This document shows positions 24,682 to 61,928 of a stretch of DNA of 64,000 bases, in pieces. Positions within the stretch are counted from its first letter, which is position 1, and each line of letters starts with the position of its first letter. The notes beneath the pieces are model-generated. The model did not search any database and was not told the DNA's origin. It was given only the letters and a program-made list of their open reading frames with translations. Source of the stretch: Elusimicrobiota bacterium (lineage in GTDB: Bacteria > Elusimicrobiota > Elusimicrobia > UBA1565 > UBA9628). The stretch covers positions 23,812-87,811 of the forward strand of contig JACRDT010000004.1 of the NCBI GenBank assembly GCA_016212795.1, read 5' to 3'. Made by a program: the position numbers and the translations under genes.

Positions 24682-25311
24682 ATGCTCCAAGGTTCTTCGT
24701 GGCGGCTGGCGCTTTCCGCGGCGGCGGCCGCCGCGTGCGTCGCCGCGGGGCCTTGCTCCGCGGCGGCCGCCGACTCCTCCTACCCGGCGGACCTGGGGCC
24801 CGCGAGCCTCGCGGCGGCGGCCAAGGGGTGGCCGCCGCCCCCTCCGGCGAGCGGAGAACATCCTGCGCCTGCGAGGACGGCGGCCCCTTGGCCGCCGGCG
24901 CTCAAGACGGGGTACCGGCTCACCGTGGCCCGCTGCGGCCGGTGCCATACCCCGGCGCGCGTCTTCAACCACCGGTATGCCGAGCCGGAGGGGAAGAACG
25001 TCCCCGACAAGGAAGACGTCATCGCCTCCTTGAAGGCGGACCATCCCGGGTTCTTCCAGGCGCCCGGGGTCTGGCAGATCGAGGCCGATGTCTGGAAGCT
25101 CTGCGTCGAGAGGATGGCGGCCATGCCCGCCAGCGGGATCAAGCCCGGGGAGGGCAGGACCATCTGGCTGTTCCTCGTCGCCGAAGGGGCCCCCCGGAAG
25201 CTGGGGGAGGGCGCTTCGGCCTGGAAGACGCTCCGGGAATCCCTCTTGAAGCGCTTCAAGGCCGAGCGGCCGGGCCGCTATCGCGAGCTGGAGGCCGTCG
25301 ACGGCCTCTGA
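24682..25311 (+). CDS. Monoheme cytochrome c, exported
   Basis: Signal peptide, CGRCH heme motif, W...VERM..MP distal Met region. Confidence 0.75.
   Translation: MLQGSSWRLALSAAAAAACVAAGPCSAAAADSSYPADLGPASLAAAAKGWPPPPPASGEHPAPARTAAPWPPALKTGYRLTVARCGRCHTPARVFNHRYAEPEGKNVPDKEDVIASLKADHPGFFQAPGVWQIEADVWKLCVERMAAMPASGIKPGEGRTIWLFLVAEGAPRKLGEGASAWKTLRESLLKRFKAERPGRYRELEAVDGL
24829..24897 (+). repeat. 60-bp in-frame insertion element, copy A
   Basis: TGGCCGCCG at 24829 and 24889; 23-nt identity with 61773. Confidence 0.7.
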
Positions 25312-25329
25312 TTTTTGCTAGACTCACGC

Positions 25330-25521
25330 ATGGCCCAGGCTTGCTGCGTCGATTGCCGTTGGTGCGAGCTGAGGATCAGCCTCGACGCCGGCTCCAATTA
25401 CTACTGCGTGGTCCTGGGGGAGTCCCTCAAAGGCGACGTCCTGTGGCGGGCGGCCTGCAAGGATTACTCGCTCCCTGCCTCTCCGGCCCAGAAGCCCGCC
25501 GAGCGCCCGCCCACGCGCTAA
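25330..25521 (+). CDS. Small Cys-rich putative metal-binding protein
   Basis: MAQACCVDCRWCE..YYC..ACKDY; TGCTAGACT -10 box 5 nt upstream. Confidence 0.6.
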   Translation: MAQACCVDCRWCELRISLDAGSNYYCVVLGESLKGDVLWRAACKDYSLPASPAQKPAERPPTR

Positions 25522-26270
25522 GAAGCGGCGGCCAGCGTGTCGAAGGCGGTCTTCAGGTCGTCCGTCCAGATGGCGTCGAAGCCCTGGCTGACGAAGTACA
25601 TGATCTCCTGCGGGGTGTTGGCCACTCCGGCGCTCACCGACAACCCTTGGCGCCGGGCCCGTTCCGCCATGGGCCGGATGTCCCACAGGCGGCAGGCGAG
25701 CATGTAGAGGGCCTTGGTCGCCGGGCGGTCCCAGCCCAGGCAGATGCCGGCGGCGCCCAGGGCGACCGACGCGCCGGTGTTCCACGGCGCGCCCGGCATC
25801 ACGCCGAACCTCACCCCGGGAGCGGCGCGGGCCGCGAGGAGCAGCTGCTGCCGGTTCGAGTAGAAATCGAGGGCGAAGGCCCTGCCGCGGATCGCGGAGG
25901 CCCCCAGGGCGCGGCCGACGGCGCGGGCGAGCTCGTCGGAGCGCTGGTGGAGGTCGAGGTAGACCTCGGCCCCGCTCCACCCCTCCGCCGCGGCGAGGGC
26001 CTCCTCGAGGTGGGGGATGGGGTGGCGTCCGAAGGCGCGCAGCAGCTTGATCTCCTTCCACGGCCGCCAACCCAGCGGACCGCGCACGCCGGCGACCCGC
26101 TCGCCGGTCCTGTCGTGGAAGAGGAAGGGCTGGCCGTCGGCGCTCAGCTGCACGTCGAGCTCGATGCCGTCGGCCCCCTCGTTCTTGGCGGTCTCGATCG
26201 AGGCCAGGGTGTTCTCCGGCGAGGTGGCCATGGCGCCGCGGTGGGCGAGGACGCGGAACCTGCCTACCAT
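25518..26270 (-). CDS. Glycerophosphodiester phosphodiesterase
   Basis: AHRG...PENTL, GIELDVQLSADG, HD, IWTDD. Confidence 0.88.
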   Translation of the reverse strand: MVGRFRVLAHRGAMATSPENTLASIETAKNEGADGIELDVQLSADGQPFLFHDRTGERVAGVRGPLGWRPWKEIKLLRAFGRHPIPHLEEALAAAEGWSGAEVYLDLHQRSDELARAVGRALGASAIRGRAFALDFYSNRQQLLLAARAAPGVRFGVMPGAPWNTGASVALGAAGICLGWDRPATKALYMLACRLWDIRPMAERARRQGLSVSAGVANTPQEIMYFVSQGFDAIWTDDLKTAFDTLAAAS

Positions 26271-27691
26271 AGCTTGCCGGGGTTGAGGAGCCCGCGGAAG
26301 TCCCGGCGGGCCTTCTCGGCCTGCCAGAGCCTCTTCCACCGCGGGTCCAGCGCCCAGTCGATCCAAGGGAGCTTGGCCAGCCCCACGCCATGATGGTGGT
26401 TGACCTTGCCTCCCAGCCTCACGCAGGCCTCCATGGCGGCCTTCCAGGCGGCCAGGTGGTCCCCCGGCCCGTGCCCCGCGACCGTGACATAGAGGCAGGC
26501 GCCCTTGGCGTCGAAATGCGAGAGGTGCGCGAAGGCGAAGGCGTGCGGCTTGACGGCTTCCAGCACCCCCAGATGCAGGGCCTCGAGCCGGTCCCAGGGG
26601 GCCCAGAGGTCCATGGTGTCGGCGAAGCATCCCTGCCGGAAGACCCTTTCGAGCCGCGCCTTGTCGAGGTGGTAGCGCCGCTCCCACCACCGCATGGCCG
26701 GGCCGGGTCCCAAGGCCGACGCCCGGGGGGCGGCCGCCGGAGCGCCCCCCTCGAAGCCGGGCTCGTCCTCGTAGATGAGGACGCACACCCACTTCCGGCC
26801 CAGCAACGGCGAGATGGCGCGCAGCGCGCCGATGCGCTTGAGGACGATGGATTGGACCGCCCCGGTCCACGACGAAGCCGGGGAGGACCTGGCGGCATGG
26901 CGATGGTGGAGCCCGTTGAAGAACGCGTCGACCGGGCAGTAGAGCCTCAGGACGGAAGGCGGGGGCTTGGCCGAGACCGCGGCGCGGGCGAAATCCAGGG
27001 CGGCCTCCAGGGCGCCGAAACCCCAGGCGTGGAACTGCCGCCCCGCGGCCGCGGGCCTGATGCGCAGGGACGCCTCGGTGATGACCCCCAGCGTGCCCTC
27101 GGCTCCCAGGTGGAGGTCGGCCTGCTCCGCGCGCAGGCTCCCGTCGGGCAGCGCGGCCTTGACCCACCGGAGCTGGTCCCTGACGCCGCCGTAGCGCGTG
27201 GAGAGCTGGCCGAAGGAATCCGTCGCGACCCAGCCCCCGACGCAGGAGTCCTCCATGGACTGGGGGAAGTGCATGAGCGACCAGCCGCGGGCCTGGAGCC
27301 TCGCCTCGAGGTCGGAGCCGCGCAGGCCCGCGCCGCAGACGACCGTGGGCCCGTCGGGCCTGTCCTCGACGCGGAAGGTCTCCGTGAGGCCGGACACGTC
27401 GAGGACCAGGCTCTTGGGCCGCTGCGGCACGGCCGCGCCCAGGACCCCGGAGCCGGCCCCGCGCGGCACGACCGCGCAGCCTTGCGAGGCGGCCCAGGCG
27501 AGGACCGCGGCGACGCCCTTCTCGTCCCTGGGCCTGATCACGGCCGCCGGGAGGTGGGAGGCCAGTTCTTCCCGCGTCCACCCGATGGCCTGGGGCCAGG
27601 AGTCCCTGGCGTAGAGGAGCCGGGTCGGCTCGTCTTCGATGACCCGGGCCGGCCCCAGCAGCCGGCCCAGCTCTGAGAAAGGGGAGCTCAT
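26264..27691 (-). CDS. FAD-binding oxidoreductase, alkyl-DHAP-synthase-like (VAO/PCMH family)
   Basis: PRGAGS, HFPQS.E.S.VGGW, STRYG, GAEGTLGVITE, HLSH, NHHHGVG, LNPGKL. Confidence 0.8.
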   Translation of the reverse strand: MSSPFSELGRLLGPARVIEDEPTRLLYARDSWPQAIGWTREELASHLPAAVIRPRDEKGVAAVLAWAASQGCAVVPRGAGSGVLGAAVPQRPKSLVLDVSGLTETFRVEDRPDGPTVVCGAGLRGSDLEARLQARGWSLMHFPQSMEDSCVGGWVATDSFGQLSTRYGGVRDQLRWVKAALPDGSLRAEQADLHLGAEGTLGVITEASLRIRPAAAGRQFHAWGFGALEAALDFARAAVSAKPPPSVLRLYCPVDAFFNGLHHRHAARSSPASSWTGAVQSIVLKRIGALRAISPLLGRKWVCVLIYEDEPGFEGGAPAAAPRASALGPGPAMRWWERRYHLDKARLERVFRQGCFADTMDLWAPWDRLEALHLGVLEAVKPHAFAFAHLSHFDAKGACLYVTVAGHGPGDHLAAWKAAMEACVRLGGKVNHHHGVGLAKLPWIDWALDPRWKRLWQAEKARRDFRGLLNPGKLW

Positions 27692-27773
27692 GGGATAGGG
27701 ACGCTTCGCGTCAACGCGGGCGCGATTATAGTATAGCTTGCATTTCGATTCAAGGTAGCGTTAAATATGTCCC

Positions 27774-28889
27774 ATGCATAAGGCGCAGTCCATCCTGGTG
27801 GTGGATGACGATGCCGAGATCCTCATGGTCTGCGCCGCGGCCCTGCGCATGGAGGGCTATCCCGTCGATGAGGCCCGGGGGGGCGGCGAGGCCGTCGAGA
27901 AGCTGTCCGCGCATTACGACATCGTCCTGACCGACCTGATGATGCCGCCCCCGGACGGCATCCAGGTCCTGCGCGACGTGAAGGCCCGCTCGCCCTCCAC
28001 CGACGTCATCATCATGACGGCTTCGCCCTCCCTGGACTCCGCCATCTCGGCGGTGAAGGAGGGCGCTTACGACTACCTGCGCAAGCCGTTCAAGAAGGAG
28101 GAGCTCCGGGCCGTCATCCGGCGCTGCGCCGAGGCCCGCGTCACCAAGCAGGAGCTGGCGACGGAGCGGCACCTGCGCGAGGAGCTCCAGGCCGCCTACC
28201 AGGAGCTCAAGAGGATGGAGCAGCTCAAGGAAGGCTTCATCTGCCGGGTCAGCCACGAGCTGCGCACCCCCTTGACCCAGGTGGTCGGCTGCCTCGAGCT
28301 CATCGAGCGCCACCAGGGCGACCCCGCCTGCGCCAAAGACAAGCTCAAGTCCGCCGTGGACGGCGCTCGCCGCCTGCGGGAGGTCGTCGAGGACATCGTG
28401 AGTTTCGCGGAGATCCAGGAGCCCGGGCTCGAGCTCGACAAAAAGCCCGTCGACTTCGGCCCCGTCATCGAGCGGGTCCTCGAGGAGACCGCGCCGGAGT
28501 GGCAGGCCAGGGGGCTGACGATCTCGACCCATCTCGAGGAGAACCGCGAGGTGGTCGCGGACGCCGGCATGCTCGAGCGGGCCCTGAGGCACCTGATCCT
28601 CAACGCTATCCGGTTCAACAAACAGGGCGGCGCCGTGGAGATCCGCGTCCAGGACGCGCCGGAGGGGCTGGAGATCGCGATCAAAGACACCGGCGAGGGC
28701 GTCCCCCTGGACCAGCGCCTGACCATCTTCGACGCCTTCTACCAGATCGCGGAGTTCATGACGCGCAAGGTGCGCGGCCTGGGCCTGGGCCTGGCCCTGG
28801 TCAAGAGGATCGCCGAGGCGCACGGCGGCACGGTGACGGTCGAGAGCACTCCCGGCGAGGGCAGCACCTTCCGCCTCAGGCTGCCCTGA
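27774..28889 (+). CDS. Hybrid receiver-histidine kinase
   Basis: REC (LVVDDD, TDLMMP, YLRKPF) plus [24 protein letters not shown]. Confidence 0.93.
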
Positions 28890-28896
28890 CGGGTCG

Positions 28897-30282
28897 TCAG
28901 GGCTTTTCTTTCGAGACGCGCTCGAGCGCCCTCTTCGCTTTGCGATGGCCCGGGTCCGACTGGAGGCAGGCTTTCCAGAGCGCGACGGCGTCCGCGGTCC
29001 CGCCGGCCGAGTAGGCCCTCACGCCCTTGAGGTAGAGGGCCTGGGCCGCGGGGCTGATGACCGCCGGCTTCGAGGCGTCGGCCGGCGCTTCCCCTGGGGG
29101 GGAGACCGGGGGCTTCCGGGCCCGTCGCGCCGATTCGTCAGCCTCCTCGAAAAGCCGGCCGACATCCGCCTCCCGCGCCTGCTCTCTCCCCGGGGCTTTG
29201 GCCGCCGCGGGCGCCTTCTTGTCGCCGCCGCGCAGTTCGTCCGGCCAGGGGATATCGACGGCTTCGGCGCCCTGCGTCCGCGGGACCGGGACCGTGACCG
29301 ACACCGGTTCCGGCGAGGGGGCCGGCCGCGGCGGGGCCGGGGGGGGGAGCTTGGCCAGGTCCTCGGCGCCAGAGAGATAGAACCTGGCCTCGGCGTTCCC
29401 CGGGTCGGCCTCGAGCACTTTCTTCCACAGCCGGATCGAGTCGGCGTAATCGTCCTTCTTGAAAGCGTTCAAGGCCTGGACCGCGGTCCAGAGGAGCTCC
29501 TCCTTGCGCTTCTCGAGGTCCTTGATCGTGGCGGCGAGCGTCCGGATGCCGGCCAGGACCTTCGGGTTTTCCATTTGCGAGATCAAGTCGCTAGCCCCCC
29601 CGCTGCTCGCCCCCCCGCGGGGGGGGCGAGCGATTTGGGGGCGAGCAGTGGGGGGGCTCTGCGCTGTTTTCTTGTCTTCCCCCCAAACCTCGGCGTGGTA
29701 CCTCTCGATCATGGCGGCCTCGGCCAGCGGGCCCGTGGGGTAGGTCCCAGGCCATCTCCCCTTCCAGCGCGGCTCGTCGGCGAGGCGAGGATGGAATTCG
29801 AGGAGCGTCTTCTGAAGTTCGACCTTCGCGTTGGCCAGCGGCTGCATGGCCCGGAAGGAGATGGGGATGTCCGCCAGGGCCTTGGCGTAGGCCTCGAAGC
29901 CGGCCCTGGCCCGGGACGGGTCCCGGATCATGGACGCGATCTTGCCGATCCGGTCTTTCCACGCGAGGACCTCGGCGCTCCGGTCCGAGTCCTTCCGGGC
30001 GGCGCCGGGCTCCTGGAGCTCTTTCAGCAGGGCTTCTTTCTCCGCCAGGGCCTTCTCCCGCTCCCGCCTGTCGAGTTCCTCGGCGGTCTTCCTCAGCTGT
30101 TCCCTGGCGCCGGGGTGGCCCGGGGCCTCGAGCAGGACGTCCATGAACCCTTCCAACGCTTCCTCGAATCGGCCTCCCTCGAAGTCCGCGAGGCTGGCGG
30201 TGTAGGCCAGGTCGGCCCTGATCCTGCGGTCCTGCGCCGCGAAGCAATGGGCGGCGAGCAGCAGGGCGATGAACGCGTTCAT
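28897..30282 (-). CDS. Exported TPR-containing protein
   Basis: Start [15 protein letters not shown]; TPR-like units ([22 protein letters not shown]); Pro-rich linker. Confidence 0.75.
29592..29672. repeat. Palindromic REP-like element in-frame within the TPR gene
   Basis: AGCCCCCCCGCTGCTCGCCCCC...GGGGGCGAGCAGTGGGGGGGCT inverted repeat with a nested CCCCCCGCGGGGGG core. Confidence 0.65.
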
Positions 30283-32297
30283 GGGAGCGCGCCAGGACAG
30301 GCGGAGCCGGCCGCGGACCGGCTCCCCAGGAGACGGTCCGCCAGCCTCAGGGCGAAGGCGTAGATCGTCATCTGCGGGTTGACCCCGAGGCTCTCGGGCA
30401 CGACCGAGCCGTCGCAGACATGGATGCCGGGCGCAAGCCTCAGGTCCTCGTCCACGACCCTGCCCATGCCGCAGGTCCCCAGCGGGTGGAAGGCCATGCT
30501 GTAAAGCTGCTCCGGCCGCACGGGACGGCCGGTCTCCTCCTCGAGCCGGCCGAGGTCGGCGACCTCGTTGCCGGGACGGTTGAACGGGAGCAGCAGGCGC
30601 TCCGCCCCGGCCGCCAGGAAGATCTCGCCCACGAACCGGGCGGCCGCCGCCAGCCGGCGGATGTCGGCGGGGGAGAGGTCGTAGCGGATGAGGGGGAGGC
30701 CGGGGCCCAGGGGGTAGCGGACGGAGCCGCGTGCTTCGTCGCGGATCATGTAGCCGAAGGCCGCGACGTGGTCGTAGCGGTCCAGCCACCAACGCAGGCG
30801 GGACCCTTCCAGGGCCATGGTGACGGCCGAGGTCGCCCTCGGGGTGAAGACGCCCTCGCAGCGGATGGCTGGGTCTTGCGGGTGCTCGACGCCCACGCCT
30901 TGGGGCACGCCCTCCCACCCGCGCACCGGCTCGGCGAAATGGGCGAAGACCTTCCCCGCCGGATGGAGGGAGAGCCCGTCTCCCGCCAGGCGCCAGGCCG
31001 GCCCCAGGCGGAAGGCCCGGACGAAATACGGCGTGGCCAGCGCGCCGGCCGCGAGGACGAGCTCCCCGCATTCGAGTGTCCGGCCGCGCGGGTGGCCCGA
31101 GTCGCGCACGACCACGGACACGGGGCCTCGGCCTGGCCTCGGGGCCCGCACGCCCACCAGTTCGGCGCCCGTCGCCACCGTCAGGTTCGGGTCGTCCGCG
31201 AGAGGGGAGAGGAAGGCCTTGGCGGAGGTCATCTTGGCGTCGCGCGGGCAGACGAAGCAGCAGCGGCCGGACCCGGCGCAGCCGTCCTCGCTGCGGTCGA
31301 GCGGGGCCCCGGTCTTGATGCCCAGCCGGGCCAGGCCCTCCAGCACGATCTTCGACGACCCGCTCAGCGTGGCCTCCGGAGCCCGCTTGACCTTCAGGCG
31401 TTCCCATGCCTCATCGAGGAAGCGCGAGAACCCGGCCTTGTCGAAGCGGCCTCCGCCGGCTTTCTCCCAGCGCTCCAGCAGGTCCGCGGGTGTCCGGAGG
31501 CACGTGCCCGAGTTGATGACCGTGGTGCCGCCCAGCGCCGTCCCGGTCGGGATGGGGATCATGGCGTTGCCCATGGAGGCGACGAAGCAGCATTGAGTGT
31601 AGTAGCGGTACACCGCCGCCATCGGGTCGTCGGGGACGGACGCGGCGGGGCCTTTCTCCAGCAGCAAGACCCTGCAGCCTCCCGCGGCCAGCCTGGCCGC
31701 CGCCGCGCCCCCGCCCGCCCCGCTGCCCGCGACGATGATGTCAAATCGCTTGCCCCCCCGGGTACCCGAGCGGCCTTGGCCGCTTGGGTGTGGGGGCAAG
31801 CAGCCGGGGGGGCTGATTTTCGTTTCATTAAGAGCCGTCTCCTCAGTCCGCTCCCCCCGCGCTGCTTGGGCCGGGAGGCCCGGGGTCCGGGGGGGCGAGC
31901 AGCCGGGGGGGATAGTCGCTGTTTCGAGCTTCTTGGGGTCCGCATAGCACCCCGCGTGCACGACGCTCTTGAGGGCCATGAAGGGCCCCCTGACCAGGGG
32001 GGAGGAGACGAGCTGCAGCCGCCGCAGGACCTCGTCGGCCTGCTCCGGCCCGAGGCGGTCGAACCGCCGGGGCTTGCCGAGGAAGATGAAGGGGAGCAGC
32101 CAACGCAGCGCGAAGGCCGCCCCCGAGGCCAGGAGGACGGCCCACCAAGGCAGCGCCTTCACGCGCAGCTCGACGCCCTCGCGCAGCCGCGCCGCGGCCG
32201 GGGCGGAGCCGTCGGCGGCCCCGCTCCCCGGGGCCGAGGCGATGAGCCTGGCGTAGGCGAGGGCGTGGCCCGCGAGGAGGTCGGCCGCGAAGCTCAT
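30279..32297 (-). CDS. GMC-family oxidoreductase with N-terminal helical domain
   Basis: AGSGAGG, GGTTVINSG, CAGSGRC, HPLGTCGMG, CDGSV, GVNPQMTI; start MSFAADLL. Confidence 0.88.
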   Translation of the reverse strand: MSFAADLLAGHALAYARLIASAPGSGAADGSAPAAARLREGVELRVKALPWWAVLLASGAAFALRWLLPFIFLGKPRRFDRLGPEQADEVLRRLQLVSSPLVRGPFMALKSVVHAGCYADPKKLETATIPPGCSPPRTPGLPAQAARGERTEETALNETKISPPGCLPPHPSGQGRSGTRGGKRFDIIVAGSGAGGGAAAARLAAGGCRVLLLEKGPAASVPDDPMAAVYRYYTQCCFVASMGNAMIPIPTGTALGGTTVINSGTCLRTPADLLERWEKAGGGRFDKAGFSRFLDEAWERLKVKRAPEATLSGSSKIVLEGLARLGIKTGAPLDRSEDGCAGSGRCCFVCPRDAKMTSAKAFLSPLADDPNLTVATGAELVGVRAPRPGRGPVSVVVRDSGHPRGRTLECGELVLAAGALATPYFVRAFRLGPAWRLAGDGLSLHPAGKVFAHFAEPVRGWEGVPQGVGVEHPQDPAIRCEGVFTPRATSAVTMALEGSRLRWWLDRYDHVAAFGYMIRDEARGSVRYPLGPGLPLIRYDLSPADIRRLAAAARFVGEIFLAAGAERLLLPFNRPGNEVADLGRLEEETGRPVRPEQLYSMAFHPLGTCGMGRVVDEDLRLAPGIHVCDGSVVPESLGVNPQMTIYAFALRLADRLLGSRSAAGSACPGALP
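31743..31930 (-). repeat. Two tandem palindromic REP-like elements forming the GMC interdomain linker
   Basis: GAAAC...CCCCCCCGGCTGCT(C/T)GCCCCC leader twice; second copy begins TTAATGAAACG as at 35493. Confidence 0.65.
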
Positions 32298-33691
32298 CCT
32301 CTCTCCACGGACTCCACGGCGGCGGCGTCGGAGGTCCCGAGGTCCTCCGTCGCGCCGCCGTCCTTGGAGGATAGGCGCAGGCGCAGGGAGCCGACCTTGG
32401 AGTTGGCGCACCTCAGGACCCGGCCGTCCGCGTCGTCGTAGTCGAACGCCGCCGTCATCCCCGGAGCGGGCGCGCAGCCTCCCTCGGCGACGAAGTCCCC
32501 GAAGTCGACGCGAAAGCCCCAGCCGCCGCCGGTCGGCCAGGTGGCGTTCCTCAGCCCCATCGTCAAGCCGACGGAAGCATGGTGGCGCCCCTTGCGCCAC
32601 AGGTGCGCGACGGTGACCCTGGGCAGGACGAGCGGTCCCAGGCGGCCTCGAGCGGACAGGATCTCGAAGACCGCCGTGCCGTCTCCGGCGAGAGGAGAGC
32701 GGCCCGCGCCTGCGACGGCCTGTCCTCCTTGCGACAGGCCGTCCCCGGAGGGGTCATCCATCACCGCGTGCGCCCAGCGCCAGCATTCGGCTTTGCGTCT
32801 TCCCCAAAGATGGCCGACGCTCCCGGGAGCCCGCGTGAAGCCGTAGGCGCGGTCCCCGACGCGGATCTCCCCGTCGAAGCAGGCCAGGGGGAGCGCGCTG
32901 GCGTAGACCGTGCCGGCGAGCCCCCAGAGGTGCAGAGCGTCCGGGACGAAGCGGAAAGGCGGGGCTTCGGGCTTCGACCACCGGAGGCGCCAGCTCACCT
33001 CGTCGCCGTCGCAATCGGCCCCGTCGCGGCGCAGGACGCCCTGGGCGATTCGGCAGACCGTCTCCCCTCCGCCGAAGACGCCGGGCCCCGCCGCCGTCCA
33101 CCGGCCGCAGACCGTCTTGCGTTCGCGGGCGTCGAAGACGGCGTACCACAGGCCGCCCTCCAGGCCCGTGGGCCGGCGCTCCAGGGTGTAGCGCAGCCAG
33201 AGGGCGTCGCGGGTCTTGGGGTCGTTGGCCTTGATGAACCACGCCTCATGGAGGCAGTCCGGCGACTCGCCCGTGCGCGGGCTCCAGAGGTCGGGCGGGC
33301 CGGCGAAGCCCCGGCTCAGGAGGCCGAGGTGGAGCAAGATGGCGCCGTCCACGGCGGCCGCGAGGACGAAGAGGGGGTTGCGCTCCAGGACCGCGAAGGC
33401 CAGGAACAGGCCCGTGGAGACCCCCTTGGAGAGCAGGAGGGCGCGCCAGGCGTGCCCCTGCCGAGGGTCCGAGGCGAGGGAGAACGAAAGGTAGGAGATC
33501 ATCGTCATCATGGACCCGGTCAGGCCCAGCCAGAGGGTCTTTCCCTCGCCGGGAAGGACGCGGGCCCCGGGCAGGAGGCCGGCCCCGAGGTTGACGATCC
33601 CCATGACGCTGCCGGTCAGCGCGACGAAGGATGCCCCGACCGCGAGGAACAGCCAGCCGTAGGCTTTCAGGATGACGCGGGGGCCGGGCAT
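32294..33691 (-). CDS. Membrane protein (4 TM) fused to tocopherol-cyclase/AttH-like beta domain
   Basis: Hydrophobic N-terminus; HEAWF, LWLRYT, GHLWGRR.A..W.WAH, FDYDD.DG....C.NS motifs. Confidence 0.6.
   Translation of the reverse strand: MPGPRVILKAYGWLFLAVGASFVALTGSVMGIVNLGAGLLPGARVLPGEGKTLWLGLTGSMMTMISYLSFSLASDPRQGHAWRALLLSKGVSTGLFLAFAVLERNPLFVLAAAVDGAILLHLGLLSRGFAGPPDLWSPRTGESPDCLHEAWFIKANDPKTRDALWLRYTLERRPTGLEGGLWYAVFDARERKTVCGRWTAAGPGVFGGGETVCRIAQGVLRRDGADCDGDEVSWRLRWSKPEAPPFRFVPDALHLWGLAGTVYASALPLACFDGEIRVGDRAYGFTRAPGSVGHLWGRRKAECWRWAHAVMDDPSGDGLSQGGQAVAGAGRSPLAGDGTAVFEILSARGRLGPLVLPRVTVAHLWRKGRHHASVGLTMGLRNATWPTGGGWGFRVDFGDFVAEGGCAPAPGMTAAFDYDDADGRVLRCANSKVGSLRLRLSSKDGGATEDLGTSDAAAVESVERG
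32678..32748 (+). repeat. 60-bp in-frame insertion element, copy C
   Basis: GCCGTC(T/C)CCGG at 32678 and 32738; CTCCGGCGAGAGGAG core. Confidence 0.65.
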
Positions 33692-34586: not shown

Positions 34587-35555
34587 ATGCGTGAACGAGC
34601 GGCGGCGCCCGTCAGAGCGGCTTCCTGGGAGGCCGTCATCGTCGGCGGCGGTCCCGCTGGGCTCGCGGCGGGCATCCATCTGGCGCGCGCCGGCTACCGG
34701 ACCCTCCTCATCGAGCGCGGCGCTCTCGGCGGCGAGGCCGCCCGCCTCGACCGGGTGGAGAACTACCCCGGCTTCCCTCAGGGCATCGCCGGCCGCGACC
34801 TGATGTCGCTCTGGGTGCGGCAGGCCCGGCGCTGGGGGCTCGAGTTCCGCCGCGCCGAGGCGCGCGGCGTCGAGCGGCGCGCGGGGGTCTTTGGCGTCAA
34901 GCTGTCGAAGGGCGGCGTTATCAGGACCTATGCCGTCATCCTGTGCCCCGGGGCCGAGTTCCGGCGCCTGGGGGTCCCGGGCGAGAAGCGCCTGGCCGGC
35001 GCCGGGGTCTGGAACGCGGCCCTCGACGTCAGCCGGAGGTGGCGCGGCAAGACGGTCGCCGTGGCGGGCTCGGGCGAGACGGCGCTTCGCCAGGCGCTGT
35101 CGCTCTCCAGATTCGCCGCCCACGTCCATCTCCTGAGCCGCTCCGGCCGCCTGAAGGCCAACCGCCTGCTGCGCTGGCGCCTGTCGGAATGCGGGAATGT
35201 CTCGCTGCTGCCCGGGGCCGTCATCGAGCGCCTCGAGGGCCGCCGGGCGCTCGAGACGCTCCGGGTCCGGGTGGGGCGCAACGGAGGCACGGAGCGCGTC
35301 TCGGTCAAGGCGGACGCGCTCTTCGTCCTGGCGGGCAAGGAGGGCCGGCGTTTCCCCGTGCAGGGGGGGGGCCGGTCGCCGGGGATCTTCGCCGCCGGCG
35401 ACGCGTCTTCCGGCCGGTTCCGGCAGGTGGCCGTCGCCGGAGGGGACGGCTTGAGGGCGGCCATGAAGTGCATGGAGTTTCTCGAGGCAGCCTTAATGAA
35501 ACGGCATATGCCCCCACGGCTACTTGCCTCCCCGCGGGGGAGGAAAGTTACTTGA
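34587..35555 (+). CDS. Thioredoxin-reductase-like flavoprotein lacking CxxC
   Basis: GGGPAG, ENYPGF, LGVPGE, GIFAAGD, RQVAVA.GDG; GVWNAALD replaces GVSYCAxCD. Confidence 0.8.
   Translation: MRERAAAPVRAASWEAVIVGGGPAGLAAGIHLARAGYRTLLIERGALGGEAARLDRVENYPGFPQGIAGRDLMSLWVRQARRWGLEFRRAEARGVERRAGVFGVKLSKGGVIRTYAVILCPGAEFRRLGVPGEKRLAGAGVWNAALDVSRRWRGKTVAVAGSGETALRQALSLSRFAAHVHLLSRSGRLKANRLLRWRLSECGNVSLLPGAVIERLEGRRALETLRVRVGRNGGTERVSVKADALFVLAGKEGRRFPVQGGGRSPGIFAAGDASSGRFRQVAVAGGDGLRAAMKCMEFLEAALMKRHMPPRLLASPRGRKVT
35493..35549. repeat. Palindromic REP-like element forming the TrxR-like C-terminal tail
   Basis: TTAATGAAACGG..GCCCCCACGGCTACTTGCCTCCCCGCGGGGGAGGAAAGT, near-identical to 18028-18090. 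Confidence 0.7.
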
Positions 35556-37222
35556 AAATAGTCTCTCGGCGCGAGATCCCCGGGCTGGCGGTCAACTACC
35601 TGGCGGACCTGGGCGGCGCCGGCCGCGCGCCCGGTCCCGCGAGGCTCGCGGAGTTCGTCGACACCTTGGAGCCGGGCATCCCCAAGGCCGAGAAGTGGGT
35701 CATGATGATCTCGACCCAGTTCGGCTGCCCGGTGGGCTGCAGCATGTGCGACGGGGGTCTCCTGGGATTCCACGGCAACCTCACGGCGGACCAGATGCTG
35801 GCCCAGGTGCGGCGCATCGCGGCCGGGAACCCGGCCCTCGACATCGGGACCCATCCCAAGGTGAAGATCCATTTCGCGAGGATGGGCGAGCCTTCCTTGA
35901 ACCCGGCCGTCCTCGACGCGCTGGAGCTGCTCGGCCGGGAGTACCCGCACCAGGGCGTGATGCCGAGCCTCTCGACCGTGGCGCCCAAGAGCCGGGCGAC
36001 CGCGCCGTTCTTCGACAGGCTCATCGAGGTCAAGGACCGGCATTTCGGCGGCGGGCGCTTCCAGCTCCAGTTCTCCCTCCACGCCGTGGACTCCGGGTCC
36101 CGGCGCGGCGTCATCCCCATCCCCACGTGGAGCCTGGATGAGGTCGCGGCCTACGGGCGGCGGTTCGTCCGGCCCGGGGACCGCAGGATCACGCTGAATT
36201 TCGCCCTGGGTCCCGGCGGGACCATCGACGCCGCCGCCCTGGCGGCGGCCTTCGACCCCGCCCTGTTCCTCGTCAAGGTCACGCCGATCAACCCGACGAA
36301 GGCGGCCGAGGCGTCCGGCTCGGCCAACGTCTGGATGCAGGCGCCGCCGTCCGTCCAATCCCCGGCCGACGAGCTCGTCCGCCGCGGGTTCAGGGTCATC
36401 CTCTCGCCCAGCGCCCAAGAGGAGATCGAGGCGGAGACTTCCTGCGGGCAGCTCTGGTCGGGGGAGTTCAAGACGGCCGCCGATGTCGCGCTGGCCAACC
36501 GGCGCCGCGAACGGCGTTCTTACGTCAGGCCCTCCACCCTGCCGGCCCGGGCGGCGGCATGGCTGGGAGAGGCCCGGAAAACGGGCAGGCGCGAGTTCCC
36601 GCTCGAGCCGGGGAGCGCCGCCCTGCTGGTCGTCGACATGCAGGAGTTCTTCCTGAGCCGGCGCTCGCCGGCCTACGCCCCGCAGGCCCGGGCCGTCCTG
36701 CCCAACGTGCGCGCGCTCGTCGAGGCCTTCCGGCGCGCCGGGCGGCCCGCGCTCTTCACGCTCCACGCCCACGAGGATCCCGCCCGCGACGGGGGCCTCA
36801 TGACGTGGTGGTGGGACAAGGCGTGCCTGGCGGGCACCCCTGAGGCTTCGGTGTCGCCGGTGCTGGAGCCCGCGAGAGGGGAGGTGCTGCGCAAGTGCCG
36901 CTACAGCGCCTTCACCAACCCTTCGCTGGAGAGGCGCCTGCGCCGCTCCGGCGTGAGCCAGCTGGTCGTCGCCGGGGTCATGACCAACCTGTGCGTCGAA
37001 TCGACGGTGCGCGACGCTTTCGACCTCGGGTTCAAGACGTTCGTCGTCGCGGACGCGACCGCGGCCCACACGGAGGAGCTCCACGTCGGGTCGCTCAGGA
37101 GCATGGCGCAGGGGTTCTCGGCCGTCCGCCTGACCGCGGCGCTGGCGCGGGAGACGGTGGAGGCCGAGAGAGCGCGCGCCGACGAGGATGTTGCGCCGTG
37201 CCTTCAAGGGGGGACTCAGTGA
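35552..37222 (+). CDS. RlmN/Cfr-like radical SAM domain fused to isochorismatase-family cysteine hydrolase
   Basis: TTG start after GGAGG, overlapping the upstream TGA; STQFGCPVGCSMCD, RMGEP, SCGQL; then LLVVDMQ, KCRYSAF, GVMTNLCVESTVRDA. Confidence 0.8.
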   Translation: MKIVSRREIPGLAVNYLADLGGAGRAPGPARLAEFVDTLEPGIPKAEKWVMMISTQFGCPVGCSMCDGGLLGFHGNLTADQMLAQVRRIAAGNPALDIGTHPKVKIHFARMGEPSLNPAVLDALELLGREYPHQGVMPSLSTVAPKSRATAPFFDRLIEVKDRHFGGGRFQLQFSLHAVDSGSRRGVIPIPTWSLDEVAAYGRRFVRPGDRRITLNFALGPGGTIDAAALAAAFDPALFLVKVTPINPTKAAEASGSANVWMQAPPSVQSPADELVRRGFRVILSPSAQEEIEAETSCGQLWSGEFKTAADVALANRRRERRSYVRPSTLPARAAAWLGEARKTGRREFPLEPGSAALLVVDMQEFFLSRRSPAYAPQARAVLPNVRALVEAFRRAGRPALFTLHAHEDPARDGGLMTWWWDKACLAGTPEASVSPVLEPARGEVLRKCRYSAFTNPSLERRLRRSGVSQLVVAGVMTNLCVESTVRDAFDLGFKTFVVADATAAHTEELHVGSLRSMAQGFSAVRLTAALARETVEAERARADEDVAPCLQGGTQ

Positions 37223-56462: not shown

Positions 56463-56491
56463 ATGATAAGAAATTTGGGCGCTCAAAGCAA
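56463..56491 (-). promoter_or_regulatory. Sigma70-type promoter of the TPR-nuoEFG-like-nfnAB operon
   Basis: TTGCTT-17 nt-TATCAT on the minus strand in an AT-rich patch. Confidence 0.6.
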
Positions 56492-56764
56492 TTTTATCGC
56501 CGCTCCAGCGGTGCGGGGAAGAGCGGTCAGCAGAAACGGCGCTTCCCCGCGCAAAGACCTTCCGACCGCCTTTCCAGCCTGCGGTCGCGCTCCTCGGCAA
56601 GAAGGTCGCCCGCTTCTTCCGCAAGCGATGACCCCCTATATCGCTCCGTTGGAGATGGTTGTTGCAGCAAAGCAACGAACCAAGGGAGGCGTCCCCGCTG
56701 GGGAGATCGCCAGGCGCTGAACTGAGGGCCTCGGGCCGGAACGTCCTCCAGCGGCCCCGCCGCG

Positions 56765-57478: not shown

Positions 57479-59112
57479 GCGCCGGCCAGGACACGGGCGA
57501 AGAAGTCGTTGCCCTTGTCGTCGATCAGGATGCCGGCGGGGAAATCCACGACGTCGATCGCCCAGACGGACTCCATCCCCAGCTCCGGGTAGTCGATCAC
57601 GGAGACCTTCTTGATGTGGTTCTCCGCCAGCAGGGCGGCCACGCCCCCGGCCGAGCCCAGGTAGAAGCCGCCGTGCTTCTTCAGGGCCTGGGTCACCGCG
57701 GGCGTCCTGTTGCCCTTGCCGATCATGACCATCGAGGCGCCGTGGGCCATGAAGTCGTCGACGTAGGCGTCCATCCTGCCGGAGGTCGTGGGGCCGAACG
57801 AGCCCGACGGCTTGCCCGCGGGCTTCTTGGCCGGGCCCGCGTAGTAGACCGGGTGGTCCTTGAAGTACTGCGGCAGGCCCTGGCCCTTGTCCAGCCGCTC
57901 CTTGAGCTTGGCGTGGGCGATGTCCCGGGCCACGACCAGGCGGCCGGTCAGGAGCAGCCTGGTCCCCACCGGGTGGCGGGAGAGGTCGGCGAGGATGTCC
58001 TTCATCGGGCGGTTCAGGTCGACCGGCACGGCGCCCGGGTCGCGGCCCTCCCGGCGCAGCTCGGGCGGGATGAGGCGGCCCGGGTCGCGCTCCATCTCCT
58101 CGAGCCAGAGGCCGTCGCGGTCGATCTTCCCGAGGATGTTGCGGTCGGCGTTGCACGAGACGCCCATCCCGATGGGGCACGAGGCCCCGTGCCGCGGCAG
58201 GCGCACGACGCGCACGTCGTGGCAGAAGTGCTTGCCCCCGAACTGGGCGCCGAAGCCGATCTTGCGGGAGGCCTCGAGCAGCTCGGCTTCCAGGGCGGCG
58301 TCCCGGAAGGCGACCCCGTGGGCGTTGCCCCGCGCGGGCAGCCCGTCGAGGCAGCCGGTCGAGGCGAGCTTGACGGTCTTGAGGCAGGCCTCCGCCGAGG
58401 TCCCGCCCACGACGAAGGCGAGGTGGTAGGGCGGGCAGGCCGCGGTCCCGATGGACCGCATCTTCTCGACGAGGAAGGCCTTGAGCGCCCCCGGGGTGAG
58501 GCGCGCCTTGGTCTCCTGGTAGAGCATGGTCTTGTTGCTCGACCCGCCGCCCTTGGTCACGAAGAGGAACTCGTAGGCGGCGCCCGGGACCGCGTAGATG
58601 TCGATCTGGGCCGGGAGGTTGCTGCCGGTGTTGGCCTCGTCGAACATGGTCAAGGGGGCGACCTGGGAATACCGGAGGTCGTGGGTCGCGTAGGCTTTCC
58701 AGATGCCCTTGGACAGCAGCGCCGGGTCGTCGGCGCCCGTCCACACCTGCTGGCCCTTCTTGGCGACCACCGTGGCGGTGCCCGTGTCCTGGCATGAGGG
58801 AAGCTCGAACCGGGCCGAGATGGCGTAGTTGCGCAGCAGGGCCAGGGCCACGGCCTTGTCGTTGGCCGACGCCTCGGGATCCTTGAGGATGGCGGCTACC
58901 TGCTCCTGGTGCCGCGGCCTGAGCAGGAAGGAGACGTCGCGGATGGCCTGGTAGGCGAGCTCCGAGAGGGCTTCGGGCCGCACCAGCAGGACCTCCTTGC
59001 CCTGGAACCGGGCGGTCCGGACCGCCTTGCGGTCGAGCAGGCGGTAGCTGACGCGCTTCTTCTTGACCGGGAAGGGCTCCTGGTAGCGGAACGGCTTGGC
59101 CTGCGTCGTCAT
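57475..59112 (-). CDS. fumA: Class I (Fe-S) fumarate hydratase
   Basis: [46 protein letters not shown]. Confidence 0.93.
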
Positions 59113-59175
59113 GGTGCGACCTCCTGGGCCCCGCTCCCGCGCCAGCGCGAGGCGCCGCTCAAGGCCATGATAGCA

Positions 59176-60018
59176 CTAAAGATCCGCCTGAGGCAGGCGC
59201 TGGATCTCCTCCAGCGTGAACACCGGGCCGTCCTTGCAGACATAGACGCCGCCCACGTTGCACCGGCCGCACTTGCCCACGCCGCACTTCATCCGGTTCT
59301 CGAGCGTCGAGTAGATGGCCGTCGGCCTGAAGCCGAGGCCCGAGAGCACCGGCAGGGAGAGCCGGATCATGATCGGCGGGCCGCAGACGAGCGCCGCCGC
59401 TCCCGGCGCGGCCGCGGGCATCTCCTTGAGCACCGTCGGGACGAACCCGACCCGGCCCTTCCAATCCGGGGTCTCGCCGCCGGGGTCCACGGTCGTGACC
59501 AGCTCCACGTCCGAGCGCCCGGCCCAGCCGGCCAGCTCGTCCTTGTAGACCAGGTCGGCCACGGTGCGGGCGCCGTAGACCACGGCGACGCGTCCGAACT
59601 CGGCCCGGCGGTCGAGGATGTTCCAGATGACGCTGCGCAGGGGCGGCAGCCCGATGCCGCCGGCGACGAACAGCAGGTCCTTGCCCCGCCAGGACTCGAT
59701 TGGGAAATGGTTGCCGTAGGGCCCGCGGAAGGTCACGGGGTGCCCGACCTCGCGGTCCAGGAGCGCGGCCGTGACCCGGCCCGCCCTGCGGAAGGTGCAT
59801 TCGATGTAGTCGCGGCCGGGCGGGCTGGCCACGCAGAACGTGCTCTCGCCTTCCCCGGGCACGCCGTAGAGGCCGAACATCCCGACGCGATACCGCCGGA
59901 AGAACGCCTCGCGGTCCGGGGCATGGGCGAACGCCAGCCTCAGCGTCCGGACCTCGGGGGCCTCGTCCTTGGCCCGCTCGATGCGCATCTCGACAGGCTG
60001 GTAGATGTTCCCGTTCAT
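59176..60018 (-). CDS. FlxA/AsrB-like FAD/NAD(P)-binding [2Fe-2S] subunit
   Basis: Start MNGNIYQP; RGPYGN, AGGIGL, CGPP.M, MKCGVGKCGRC, CKDGPVF. Confidence 0.88.
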   Translation of the reverse strand: MNGNIYQPVEMRIERAKDEAPEVRTLRLAFAHAPDREAFFRRYRVGMFGLYGVPGEGESTFCVASPPGRDYIECTFRRAGRVTAALLDREVGHPVTFRGPYGNHFPIESWRGKDLLFVAGGIGLPPLRSVIWNILDRRAEFGRVAVVYGARTVADLVYKDELAGWAGRSDVELVTTVDPGGETPDWKGRVGFVPTVLKEMPAAAPGAAALVCGPPIMIRLSLPVLSGLGFRPTAIYSTLENRMKCGVGKCGRCNVGGVYVCKDGPVFTLEEIQRLPQADL

Positions 60019-61049
60019 GCCGGCACCCCGGCCGCGGGCCCGGCGGCCGGCGCCGCGGCGGCGGCGATGCGCTCGGCGGTGTCCGCCAGGGACATGCCGC
60101 GAGGGCAGACCCTGCCGCAGCGGCCGCAGCCGGTGCAGGCCGCGACTTTGAACCGCTCGGGGGCGTAGGCGAGCTTGTGCATCACGCGTTGGCGCCAGCG
60201 GCTGGCCTGGTCGGGCCGCGGGTTGTGCCCGGAGGCGTGCAGCGTGAAGAGCCCCAGGCCGCAGGCGTCCCAGTTGCGCAGGCGGACCACGCCGTTCGGA
60301 CCGGACTCGTCCTGGATGTCGAAACAGTGGCAGGCCGGGCAGGCGTACGCGCAGGCCGCGCAGCCCAGGCAGGGCAGGCTGAGCTCCTTCCAGAGAGGGG
60401 AATCGAAGTTCCCCGCGAGCCATGCCCCGACCCGCCCGATGTCGAAGCGCCGGCGCACCTCGGGGGGAGCGTCGGGGGCGGCGGCGCCGTCTTGCAGCAC
60501 GCCCGAGGCCGCCGCGGCCAGGTCGCGGCCTTGGTCGGTCAGGGGCTCCACGATCAGCGTGCGGCCGCCGTCGGCCGGCCTGAGGAGGGCGTCCGCCCCC
60601 GGCGCAGCGTCGGGGCGTCCCCCGACGCTGGTGCAGAAGCACTCCTCGTCCGCCTCGGAGCAGGCCAGGGCCGCCACCACGGTCGCGGCGCGGCGCGCGT
60701 CATAGAAGGAGTCGCGGAAGTCCCAGTTGAACACCGCGTCGAGCATGGCCAGGGCGGCGACGTCGCACGGCCGCGCCGCCAGCGCCGCGGTCTTGGGGGC
60801 CTCGGGCCGGGTCTCGATGGCGTCGAAGCCGTCGCCGGACCGGCGCCACCGGCCGATCGCTTCCGACGGGGGGAAGAAGACGTCCTTGAGGGAGTTGACG
60901 GGCACGGCGTCGGTCCGGATGGCGGCCCCGGGACTCCAGGGGGCGAACCGCACCACGCCGTCGGCCTCGACCGGGGCGACGACGCGATAGCCCGCGGCGC
61001 TCAGCGCCGCGGCGAGGTCCTGCAGCCTGTCGGCCGAGAGGGATTTCAT
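60015..61049 (-). CDS. FlxB/AsrA-like 4Fe-4S subunit
   Basis: ARPCD, CFCT, CLGCAACAYACPACHCF, R.WDAC, CTGCGRC..VCP. Confidence 0.88.
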   Translation of the reverse strand: MKSLSADRLQDLAAALSAAGYRVVAPVEADGVVRFAPWSPGAAIRTDAVPVNSLKDVFFPPSEAIGRWRRSGDGFDAIETRPEAPKTAALAARPCDVAALAMLDAVFNWDFRDSFYDARRAATVVAALACSEADEECFCTSVGGRPDAAPGADALLRPADGGRTLIVEPLTDQGRDLAAAASGVLQDGAAAPDAPPEVRRRFDIGRVGAWLAGNFDSPLWKELSLPCLGCAACAYACPACHCFDIQDESGPNGVVRLRNWDACGLGLFTLHASGHNPRPDQASRWRQRVMHKLAYAPERFKVAACTGCGRCGRVCPRGMSLADTAERIAAAAAPAAGPAAGVPA

Positions 61050-61055
61050 CTCATC

Positions 61056-61928
61056 CTAGGTGAAGAAGGAGTTGTCATCTTCCGGATCCCAGGTCCCGAT
61101 CAGGGGCTTGGCGGCCGGGTCGAGGCCGGCCTCGACGTCGAACTGCTCGGCGGCTTGGGCCGCCAGGAACGTGTTGAGGAGCATCAGCGGCAGGCCCTGC
61201 GGGCAGGCGCTCGCGCAGGCGCCGCACAGGGTGCAGCGGCCGGCCTGGTGGAAAGCCCGGATCATGTTCCACGCGTAGTTGCCGTGGCCGAGCGCCGCCG
61301 TCGAGACCCACTGGGGGACGTTGCGCTCCGTGACGCAGCGCTGGCAGTAGCAGCCGGGGCACGCGGCGCGGCAGGCGTAGCAGCGGGTGCACCGGGAGAA
61401 CCGCGCGGACCACCACTCGGCCCGCCGCTGCGCGGGCCAGGCGGCGAGCTCGGCCAGCCGCCGTCCGATGTCGGGGTCCCGGCGGGGCTCGGGCGCGGCC
61501 TCCCGGGCCAGGGCGGCGAGCTCTTCGACCTCTTTGACGCCCTCGTAGCGCTCGCCCCGGAAGGCCAGCGCCAGGAGGGCCCCTTGCGCGAACTGCGATT
61601 CGGCCGCCAGGGAGACGAGGCTGCGGCCCACGGCTTCGGAGGCCACGATGGCCAGGGGCATGCGGGCGCGGACCTCGGGCTTCTTGAGGTACGCCGCCAG
61701 GTTCTGGCTGCACGCCCCGTCGAAGACGAGCTCGCCGGCCCGGTGGGCCTCCTCGATGAAGGCGGGCCGGCGGCCGCCCCCTCCGGCGAGCGGAGCGCGA
61801 CATGCGCCTTCGGGGACGGCGGGCCCTTGCCCGCCGCCGGCGTGGGCGCGGTAGCCGATCACGAGCTTGACCCGCCCTTCCCGGAGCAGGCGGGCCGCGT
61901 CCTCGCGCAGGGACGGCGTCGGGCTCAT
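61056..61928 (-). CDS. FlxC/FdhB-like 4Fe-4S subunit
   Basis: Start MSPTPS; LVIGY, RCTRCYACRAACPGCYC, RAFHQAGRCTLCGAC...CP. Confidence 0.85.
   Translation of the reverse strand: MSPTPSLREDAARLLREGRVKLVIGYRAHAGGGQGPAVPEGACRAPLAGGGGRRPAFIEEAHRAGELVFDGACSQNLAAYLKKPEVRARMPLAIVASEAVGRSLVSLAAESQFAQGALLALAFRGERYEGVKEVEELAALAREAAPEPRRDPDIGRRLAELAAWPAQRRAEWWSARFSRCTRCYACRAACPGCYCQRCVTERNVPQWVSTAALGHGNYAWNMIRAFHQAGRCTLCGACASACPQGLPLMLLNTFLAAQAAEQFDVEAGLDPAAKPLIGTWDPEDDNSFFT
61773..61838 (+). repeat. 60-bp in-frame insertion element, copy B
   Basis: GCCGCCCCCTCCGGCGAGCGGAG identical to 24834; GCCGCC at 61773 and 61833. Confidence 0.7.

Follow-up and report, generated by a model that had tools for sequence, protein, structure and literature searches.

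We found that the genome of a groundwater member of the Elusimicrobia carries at least 158 non-overlapping copies of 60-nt hairpin repeats, counted by a family profile search of the whole genome. These are probably non-autonomous mobile DNA repeats of the same kind as the Rickettsia palindromic elements, and a new copy would arise at the DNA level by insertion of one unit at a matching target. The repeats fall into three families, A, C and D, which have the 60-nt unit in common. Four copies lie in the stretch of DNA analysed here (64 kb, the window), at the positions given by an earlier sequence-only reading and each with direct repeats 60 nt apart; the expectation of that reading that many more would be found genome-wide is borne out by the count. 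The copies and their host genes are listed below.

24829..24897, plus strand: copy A (family A); unit at 24829-24888, followed by the second 9-nt target TGGCCGCCG at 24889-24897
24682..25311, plus strand: host of copy A; 209-aa secreted protein with a CGRCH motif and no Pfam/NCBIfam family
61768..61841, plus strand: copy B (diverged member of family A); 20-aa insert, read antisense in a ferredoxin-like gene
61056..61928, minus strand: host of copy B; 4Fe-4S dicluster protein
32672..32748, plus strand: copy C (family C); 20-aa insert, read antisense
32294..33691, minus strand: host of copy C; membrane protein of no known family
7464..7537, plus strand: copy D (family D, two hairpins); most of a 94-nt intergenic spacer

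The four copies had been read as a single element, which holds in part: A/B and C have a 37-nt core in common, and copies A and B carry the identical 23-nt string that had been reported for them, but the repeats form three families and not one. Copy C has the core as in family A with a different terminal hairpin stem, the stems of A and C being swapped around an identical CCTT loop. Family D, previously taken for a diverged relative of the others, has no sequence relation to A or C and forms a family of its own, built to the same 60-nt plan. Its copy in the window had also been counted as a gene insertion, but it lies in the spacer that separates two minus-strand genes, 7552-8394 and 6252-7457, and is not clearly in a coding frame; it is located 7 nt upstream of a start codon and is 99% identical to copies at C21:115144 in its own genome and in G017, a genome of another genus. 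The host labels “cytochrome c” (copy A) and “cyclase-like” (copy C) find no support in Pfam or NCBIfam, although the host of A does have a CxxCH motif, and homologues of the host of B are named ferredoxin or F420 formate dehydrogenase beta subunit in the sources.

The similarity among the copies is far beyond chance. At E<=1e-3 the profiles of A, C and D gave 67, 61 and 82 matches in the real genome, respectively, and 0 matches in both composition-matched decoys, the reversed and the codon-shuffled genome. The copies are spread over at least 20 contigs in both orientations, with DNA identity of up to 99%. Most loci consist of a single unit and a short run of bases from the next; furthermore, TRF found 15 arrays with period 60 that comprise 2-7 units each, three of them with 100% matches. 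No Rfam family reached its gathering score anywhere in the 64-kb window, viral contigs had 0 matches to two core patterns, and JGI metagenome contigs contained no match to the A/C core and no relative of the host of copy A. A literature search turned up no report of comparable repeats in Elusimicrobia.

At the level of the single unit, exact direct repeats stand 60 nt apart in each of the four copies: TGGCCGCCG in A (9 nt), GCCGCC in B (6 nt), GCCGTC in C (6 nt) and GGCCTGGCC in D (9 nt). This spacing is specific. Among single D copies, an exact run of at least 6 nt occurs in 30 of 50 at spacing 60, compared with 0-5 of 50 at the control spacings of 51, 54, 57, 63, 66 and 69; for family C the corresponding counts are 14 of 25 and 0-4, and for family A 12 of 18 and 1-9. 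The genome has 69% G+C and a strong period-3 structure, which raises all repeats spaced by multiples of three. The flanking repeats are 2-21 nt long (median 6), a variation that fits a fixed enzymatic cut poorly, and the duplicated sequence is near-constant across most copies while its length varies. Each unit contains 2-3 short hairpins with compensatory pairs (DNA fold z from -0.7 to -3.1, the latter for copy A), which corrects the earlier view that the element is not an obvious palindrome. At the ends of the D unit the folds pair the 4-bp palindromic GGCC alone, with no terminal inverted repeat of at least 10 nt. This unit-plus-hairpin plan is common to several unrelated families.

Comparison with relatives shows the gain of exactly one unit at several sites, in agreement with the proposal of a tiny insertion in unrelated genes. 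The 20-aa insert of copy B corresponds to a 20-column gap in 12 of 12 homologues from a large protein database; among 30 relatives, the search for orthologues of its host gave weak partial matches only. Copy C corresponds to a 20-aa gap in 3 of 3 orthologues, and its 60 nt are absent from the DNA of four relatives. Copy A, which is read in sense and placed directly behind the signal peptide of its CxxCH host, adds exactly 20 aa relative to two of four orthologues, within a variable linker where orthologues are ~20 aa shorter. Outside the window, a D copy in uvrA is absent from the DNA of 5 of 5 relatives and appears as a 20-residue gap against PDB 2r6f. In the NAPRTase gene an exact 20-aa gap was found in two of three relatives, with no indel against a distant PDB homologue. 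The PPK2 host is 18-19 aa longer than three g18 orthologues, a difference that becomes a 20-aa insert when realigned by eye; the insert in a FabH-like host is 35 aa and not 20, and the alignment of the YfiH host to PDB covers only the region beyond the insert. The reciprocal case was also found, a D copy of 60 nt present in G181 and missing from the source genome (G000).

The duplication of the target is visible at empty sites. GGCCTG, the target in uvrA, is present once at the empty site of the relative G192. Likewise, in the X3 contig, which comes from a ~94%-identical strain sequenced in another study, 7 letters bridge positions 24818 to 24889, so the unit of copy A is absent; one TGGCCGCCG is kept, a reading that rests on our alignment of these 7 bridging letters. 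Presence at orthologous sites thus varies both between genera and between two ~94%-identical strains, which supports the claim that the repeats are mobile. The added residues were further proposed to form protein loops, and in the AlphaFold model of the host of B the residues 30-48 have pLDDT<50 and are flanked by two confident strands, so that the insert models as an unstructured loop.

Based on home-made gene calls, 127 of the 158 copies (~80%, with a range of 74-87%) are inside genes and 23 are intergenic, and by a stricter GC3 flank test 48 of the 158 are clearly intragenic. Some copies are found at gene junctions and gene ends. For the REP-like families C7-G7 of the same genome, 21 of 323 copies are in genes. 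The hosts are unrelated to each other and include uvrA, NAPRTase, PBP1, PPK2, a DinG-like helicase and OGG. Overall, translation of the units uses both orientations and several frames; within family D, 55 of 61 genic copies use two of the six frames. The units of A and C are almost stop-free, and 8 of 13 copies in relatives are in frame.

The families occur in several genera of one GTDB family, at non-orthologous sites, with D in 16 and A in 34 of 61 genomes. Between genera the copies are 87-99% identical and the flanking DNA is 66-75% identical. A sample of 150 other genomes of the phylum, two of them from the same family, gave no D copy when six candidates were scored per genome. In the source genome 55 of 74 D loci (against 19) lie on the C-rich strand (p=3e-5), which hints at a single-strand step; in five relatives the counts were 23 and 16 with 10 undecided, which is not significant, and families A and C have no strand bias.

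In-frame selfish repeats have been a Rickettsia curiosity for 25 years, and to our knowledge the way in which they move is not known. The cited account describes the Rickettsia palindromic elements RPE-1 to RPE-10 as short hairpin repeats of ~150 bp that form several families in one lineage, have no known transposase, and in many cases lie in frame in unrelated housekeeping genes, where they add a peptide and leave the host protein intact (PMC10969869). The element had been called undescribed; its kind is already known from Rickettsia (PMC10969869). Compared by that description, the repeats reported here resemble RPEs in being dispersed multi-copy families with hairpins, located in frame in unrelated genes. 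They differ in that the unit is 60 nt and not ~150 bp, in that a short duplicated target is identical to the unit boundary and direct tandem dimers occur, and in that a free-living groundwater member of the Elusimicrobia, a MAG of 69% G+C, takes the place of an AT-rich obligate intracellular alphaproteobacterium as host. What is new here is the 60-nt quantum, a duplicated target that is a hairpin arm, and the strand bias of D.

Three other systems show partial likeness. IS200/IS605 elements move by “peel and paste”, with end hairpins on one strand, a specific short motif and clean gain or loss of the unit; they make no target duplication, their left and right cleavage motifs usually differ, and their orientation is biased with respect to the replication strand. 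The units described here also have hairpins near both ends on one strand, a specific short motif at the insertion site and gain or loss by clean unit lengths, and D has its strand bias in the source genome, but the target is duplicated, no intact Y1 could be tied to the units and the bias is not reproduced in relatives. MIRUs are dispersed 40-100-bp units of mycobacteria that form head-to-tail arrays between the genes of operons, with frames joining neighbouring genes in a high-G+C host. The short dispersed units, some head-to-tail arrays, frames joining neighbouring genes and the high-G+C host are found here as well, whereas 74-87% of copies are inside genes and most loci have just one unit. 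A REP is a single palindrome outside genes that bears a conserved GTAG head; REPs frequently form inverted pairs and are associated with RAYT transposases. The REP/BIME/REPIN group and the present repeats share short GC-rich hairpins in hundreds of copies and a RAYT-like gene in the genome; in contrast to REPs, families A, C and D are mostly intragenic, have several hairpins and are arranged head-to-tail, and GTAG is absent from the copies read.

Under the preferred reading, a new copy would consist of exactly one 60-nt unit inserted, at the DNA level, at a target of 4-9 nt. As the target sequence is the unit's own boundary, the unit would then be flanked by the motif, with 60 nt from one occurrence to the other. 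For A and C this motif is the 3′ arm of the terminal hairpin; for D it reaches into the 5′ arm of the hairpin that comes first. If a further unit entered at either of the two flanking motifs, the perfect two-unit tandems that are observed would result. Genic insertions would survive owing to a unit length divisible by three and, in A and C, the near absence of stop codons; such insertions would be read through as 20-residue loops rich in Gly, Pro, Ala and Ser, and selection may then purge the frames that give basic or Cys-rich peptides.

For the mobilising step we tentatively propose a single-stranded hairpin intermediate and an HUH-type enzyme acting in trans, similar to the “peel and paste” of IS200/IS605, which would cut after the same short motif at both ends. 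The recombinase or transposase with matching ends that had been suggested was searched for and none was found in this genome, which is 90% complete. No Y1 link could be made, the sole IS200-type tnpA being split over two frames. A RAYT-like ORF at C21:103121-104131 has Tyr and Gln in place of the HUH histidines; the nearest A or D copies are at least 1.8 kb off, and the RAYT-like gene is found in 51 of 61 genomes of the family regardless of carriage and therefore does not track the elements. A Y2/IS91 link was discarded: Y2 is present in 20 of 61 genomes, a distribution that does not follow that of the elements, and the Y2/IS91 copy is at a contig end next to a palindrome unlike the units. A search for a longer parent element with half-unit profiles gave no pairs enclosing a gene-sized segment.

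An enzyme-free route, template switching during replication, is nearly as likely as the HUH route, though we regard neither as probable. Here a nascent strand ending in the motif would anneal to the start of a unit elsewhere, copy 60 nt and return, with the hairpins stalling the polymerase and favouring the jump. The variable flanking homology, the identical motif in target and unit, the perfect tandem dimers and the failure to find a linked transposase or parent element all fit such a process, and the strand bias of D could equally reflect a lagging-strand process. It accounts less well for sharply defined unit ends, for several unrelated families with the same plan, or for units that are so much more alike between genera than their flanks, a contrast that points to constraint from a recognising factor or to transfer from genome to genome.

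We consider it improbable that the repeats are classical MITEs moved by a DDE transposase through staggered cuts: the target duplication and the small, numerous, non-autonomous elements are as expected of MITEs, but the folds lack a terminal inverted repeat of at least 10 nt with the GGCC core as the only common end, the duplicated sequence is nearly identical in most copies and inconstant in length, and no parent IS with these ends was found. An equally low probability is assigned to repeats kept for a cellular function, whether through a peptide module or through an RNA or DNA structure controlling expression. Near-identity across genera, the strong frame preference and copies at gene junctions or ends, including the window D copy just upstream of a start codon, point in that direction; against it, the unit is read in either orientation and several frames in unrelated hosts, relatives do not share the insertion sites, the modelled insert is a loop without structure and Rfam has no match. 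Finally, high G+C and period-3 structure could make non-mobile low-complexity linkers or local tandem duplications look alike, an explanation that we regard as very improbable given the zero matches in composition-matched decoys, the near-identical DNA on many contigs and in both orientations, the intergenic copies and the clean presence or absence at orthologous sites.

Returning to mobile repeats of the Rickettsia kind, a bolder and rather doubtful version is that they form a distinct class: codon-quantised (60-nt, generally 3n) single-stranded hairpin units that target through their own hairpin arm, insert and excise one unit at a time, have replication-strand polarity in D, and pass between genera of groundwater Elusimicrobia while adding 20-residue loops to proteins including UvrA, with machinery that would be their own or self-templated. 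If true, this would be a natural loop-insertion mutagenesis system.

The same phenomenon as in Rickettsia is thus met in an unrelated, free-living, high-G+C phylum, in a form far more amenable to dissection: the unit is both exact and very short, the target duplication can be seen, close strains provide empty as well as filled sites, and there are several parallel families, all with lengths divisible by three. Short repeats make up about 2% of the genome and contigs break at the elements; at this density they affect how these MAGs are assembled, how genes are called and how proteins are aligned. Insertions are tolerated even in essential genes such as uvrA, each adding a 20-residue loop. The mechanism, if found, would explain the one-step gain of protein surface loops and might yield a tool for precise small insertions.

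The four stretches that the sequence-only reading had grouped as copies of one 60-nt element are present in the DNA as stated:

24829-24897: copy A, in the gene of a secreted CxxCH protein
61768-61841: copy B, in the gene of a ferredoxin-like 4Fe-4S protein
32672-32748: copy C, in the gene of a membrane protein
7464-7537: copy D, intergenic, in the 94 nt that separate two minus-strand genes

Copies A and B share an exact 23-nt string plus further blocks, the central part being found also in C. Searching the source genome (4.18 Mb, 69% G+C, 50 contigs; one of its close relatives is recorded as an Elusimicrobia MAG from groundwater) with A, B, C and D by blastn-short gave 39, 26, 38 and 56 hits respectively, which resolve into three clear families, A (B included), C and D. 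Family C has a 37-nt core in common with A, while its terminal stem differs around an identical CCTT loop. Family D, taken until now for a diverged relative of the others, equals them in length and plan but is unrelated in sequence, with two hairpins of its own.

With profiles made from these hits, the genome gave 67 (A), 61 (C) and 82 (D) matches at E<=1e-3, and merging reduced these to 158 copies without overlap (37 of A, 39 of C and 82 of D), so that the many further copies expected from the four in the window do exist. The same profiles found no match in the reversed genome or in a decoy with codons permuted within 3-kb blocks, which argues against an effect of composition. Furthermore, half-unit profiles suggest that the core of A and C occurs in about 100 copies, several different modules being attached to it on the 3′ side.

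When the genome was compared with itself, 872 short repeat regions emerged, together 92.5 kb long (2.2% of the genome), and these cluster into three groups: families A/C and D, other families with unit lengths of 63, 69 and 57 nt by our own count, and, as a large group, REP-like hairpins of the C7-G7 type. The 63-nt family is the largest intragenic repeat family of this genome, with 113 of its 141 regions inside called genes, and includes several two-unit arrays with 100% matches. Every one of the extra small families has a unit length divisible by three, and two extra 60-nt families have part of the A/C core. The window itself holds four REP-like copies (17251-17319, 18031-18093, 29593-29645 and 35483-35556), the one at 29593 lying inside a called gene (28897-30282) where the contig depth of the source run is highest, 607 against about 50.

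Further unit families in the source genome (contig:positions)
C23:26788-26923, C11:17267-17391, C40:70866-71008: 63-nt unit, plan as in A, C and D
C1:137228-137375, C50:13291-13440: 69-nt unit, tandem-forming
C33:43848-43970: 57-nt unit, tandem-forming
C22:41042-41180, C48:22014-22141, C2:27941-28080: further 60-nt units, tandem-forming

Comparison of host proteins with their homologues bears out a clean 20-residue insertion for copies B and C: exactly 20 residues are missing from all 12 homologues of the B host in a large protein database and from all three orthologues of the C host, and the 60 nt of copy C are absent from the DNA of four relatives. For copy A, which follows the signal peptide within a variable linker, the size agrees but the exactness holds in only two cases, orthologues being 20, 20, 21 and 22 residues shorter. 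More telling for this copy is a contig from a sequencing run of another study than the probable source run, carrying a strain about 94% identical. This contig aligns to 24222-24818 and 24889-25864 of the window, differs from it in about 6% of letters and has just 7 letters in between. If these are placed on 24822-24828, as we infer, what the strain lacks would be precisely the 60-nt unit 24829-24888 plus a GGC codon, and a single TGGCCGCCG would be kept. A contig of the same strain has 70 letters against 157 in the window at 31759-31917 (gene 30279-32297), another length difference between the strains.

Similar gaps were found in other hosts. The D copy in uvrA corresponds to a 20-residue gap against PDB 2r6f and, in DNA alignments with relatives, to a gap of 60 columns in five out of five, and the empty site in one of them, G192, reads AAGGGCCTGGAC, in which GGCCTG occurs once. 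The NAPRTase host shows an exact 20-residue gap in two of three relatives, a gap that is absent against a distant PDB homologue. PPK2 is 18-19 residues longer than three orthologues, a difference that, realigned by eye, is probably a 20-residue insert. In a FabH-like host the insert is 35 residues with the element contained within it, and the YfiH alignment begins only downstream of the insert. In the PBP1 gene (C42:212459-214444), a C-family copy lies in the transglycosylase-transpeptidase linker (residues 198-220). Because the same linker carries an A-like antisense peptide in the relative G187 (locus L084), it looks like a hot spot, or recurrent landing site; the relative G014 has neither. 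Reciprocally, a D copy of the relative G181 is missing from the orthologous spacer of the source genome, the difference being 60 nt. G181 also carries a composite insert (locus L056, contig C24, ~1485-1566) combining a D unit's first half with an antisense A unit, a net in-frame gain of 69 nt that is absent from the source genome (C47:11397-11410).

Our own simple gene caller, based on codon usage (3202 genes, 90% coding sequence), places 127 of the 158 copies within genes and 23 between them, the other 8 overlapping the end of a gene. A stricter test, which demanded an open frame and agreement of the two 240-nt flanks in their high-GC3 frame, accepted 48 copies, and the true intragenic count lies between 48 and 127. 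For the REP-like families, only 21 of 323 regions are inside called genes. Of 13 copies inspected in relatives, 8 lie in frame within open frames.

As had been proposed, units are read in either orientation: among the 61 genic D copies, a single sense frame accounts for 32 and a single antisense frame for 23, and 31 of 36 genic C copies are antisense. The favoured frames encode Gly/Pro/Ala/Ser-rich peptides, the avoided ones peptides that are Arg-rich or contain Cys. Since the phases of GGCCTG within genes do not predict the antisense preference, the skew points to selection after insertion. The supposed lack of stop codons applies to A and C, in whose copies a stop is rare whichever frame is read; in D copies stops are more frequent. 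The B host was modelled with AlphaFold from an alignment of 13 rows (mean pLDDT 64.8): residues 30-48 come out as coil, with pLDDT<50, and are flanked by strands 20-26 and 51-56, for which the 10-residue blocks have scores of 82-98.

The units had been described as not obviously palindromic, whereas single-stranded copies fold into two or three hairpins. DNA fold z-scores range from -0.7 to -3.1 for the eight strands tested, and consensus folding reveals compensatory changes, clearest for the terminal hairpin of family C. In A and C, the terminal hairpin has the duplicated flank as its 3′ arm; in D that flank extends into the 5′ arm of hairpin 1. No Rfam family matches the units. Three D variants (C49:48570-48647, C33:166388-166465 and C5:8034-8111) have about 15 extra bases that form a small extra hairpin in the loop of hairpin 1.

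The enrichment of direct repeats with a 60-nt period is sharp within families and only modest genome-wide. For D, 30 of 50 single copies have an exact run of at least 6 nt at spacing 60; the corresponding figures are 14 of 25 for C and 12 of 18 for A, against 0-5, 0-4 and 1-9 respectively at control spacings. Across the genome, 146 exact 10-mers recur at spacing 60, against 90-130 at neighbouring 3n spacings. The runs measure 2-21 nt (median 6) and straddle the same unit boundary every time. Among periods longer than 50 nt, 60 is the one that TRF reported most often, with 15 arrays, including three two-unit arrays with 100% matches.

Within the GTDB family, family A is present in 34 of 61 genomes, including 9 of 9 of genus g4 and 4 of 4 of g18; a 76-nt query found D in 16 of the 61, strongly in 4 of 4 of g18 and in g5. 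A sample of 150 other genomes across the phylum, for which scoring covered few candidates, yielded no D. Between genera, element copies are 87-99% identical, flanking DNA is 66-75% identical and the sites are non-orthologous.

The data require a mechanism that gives a DNA-level gain of exactly one unit and uses a short target equal to the unit boundary. A single-strand, HUH-type route is a tentative candidate: one strand carries hairpins at both ends, both junctions have a constant short motif, the gain is unit-exact, and 55 of 74 D loci in the source genome lie on the C-rich strand (p=3e-5), independently of host gene orientation (the genes themselves being 1451 vs 1381). However, this bias was not reproduced in five relatives (23 vs 16, 10 undecided, in noisier ±10-kb stretches), direct-repeat length is variable, no intact linked Y1 or Y2 gene was found in the source genome, and Y1/Y2 genes do not co-occur with element carriage. 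The variable repeats and the missing enzyme would be accounted for by template switching at microhomology, which explains conservation between genera more poorly and which we hold to be only slightly less probable than the HUH-type route. Transposase-related genes in the source genome are:

C33:216594-216957: IS200/IS605-type tnpA in a patch of lower G+C, its sequence split between two frames
C40:761-1222: IS91-type Y2 transposase, at a contig end
C21:103121-104131 (locus L030, 1318-2331): Y1-transposase-like protein, 337 residues, with Tyr and Gln at the HUH histidine positions

The last looks domesticated, because 51 of the 61 family genomes conserve it, at 50-78% identity and with many paralogues.

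The closest known elements are the Rickettsia palindromic elements, described as about 150 bp long, in ten families and often in frame in metabolic genes (PMC10969869). On that description the present elements work alike, but differ in size, duplicated target, direct tandems and host; at the level of search results, the literature yielded no description of such repeats in Elusimicrobia. Taken together, strain polymorphism, copies 99% identical and perfect tandems require that the elements have been recently active, and the data further require that units are tolerated in coding sequence.
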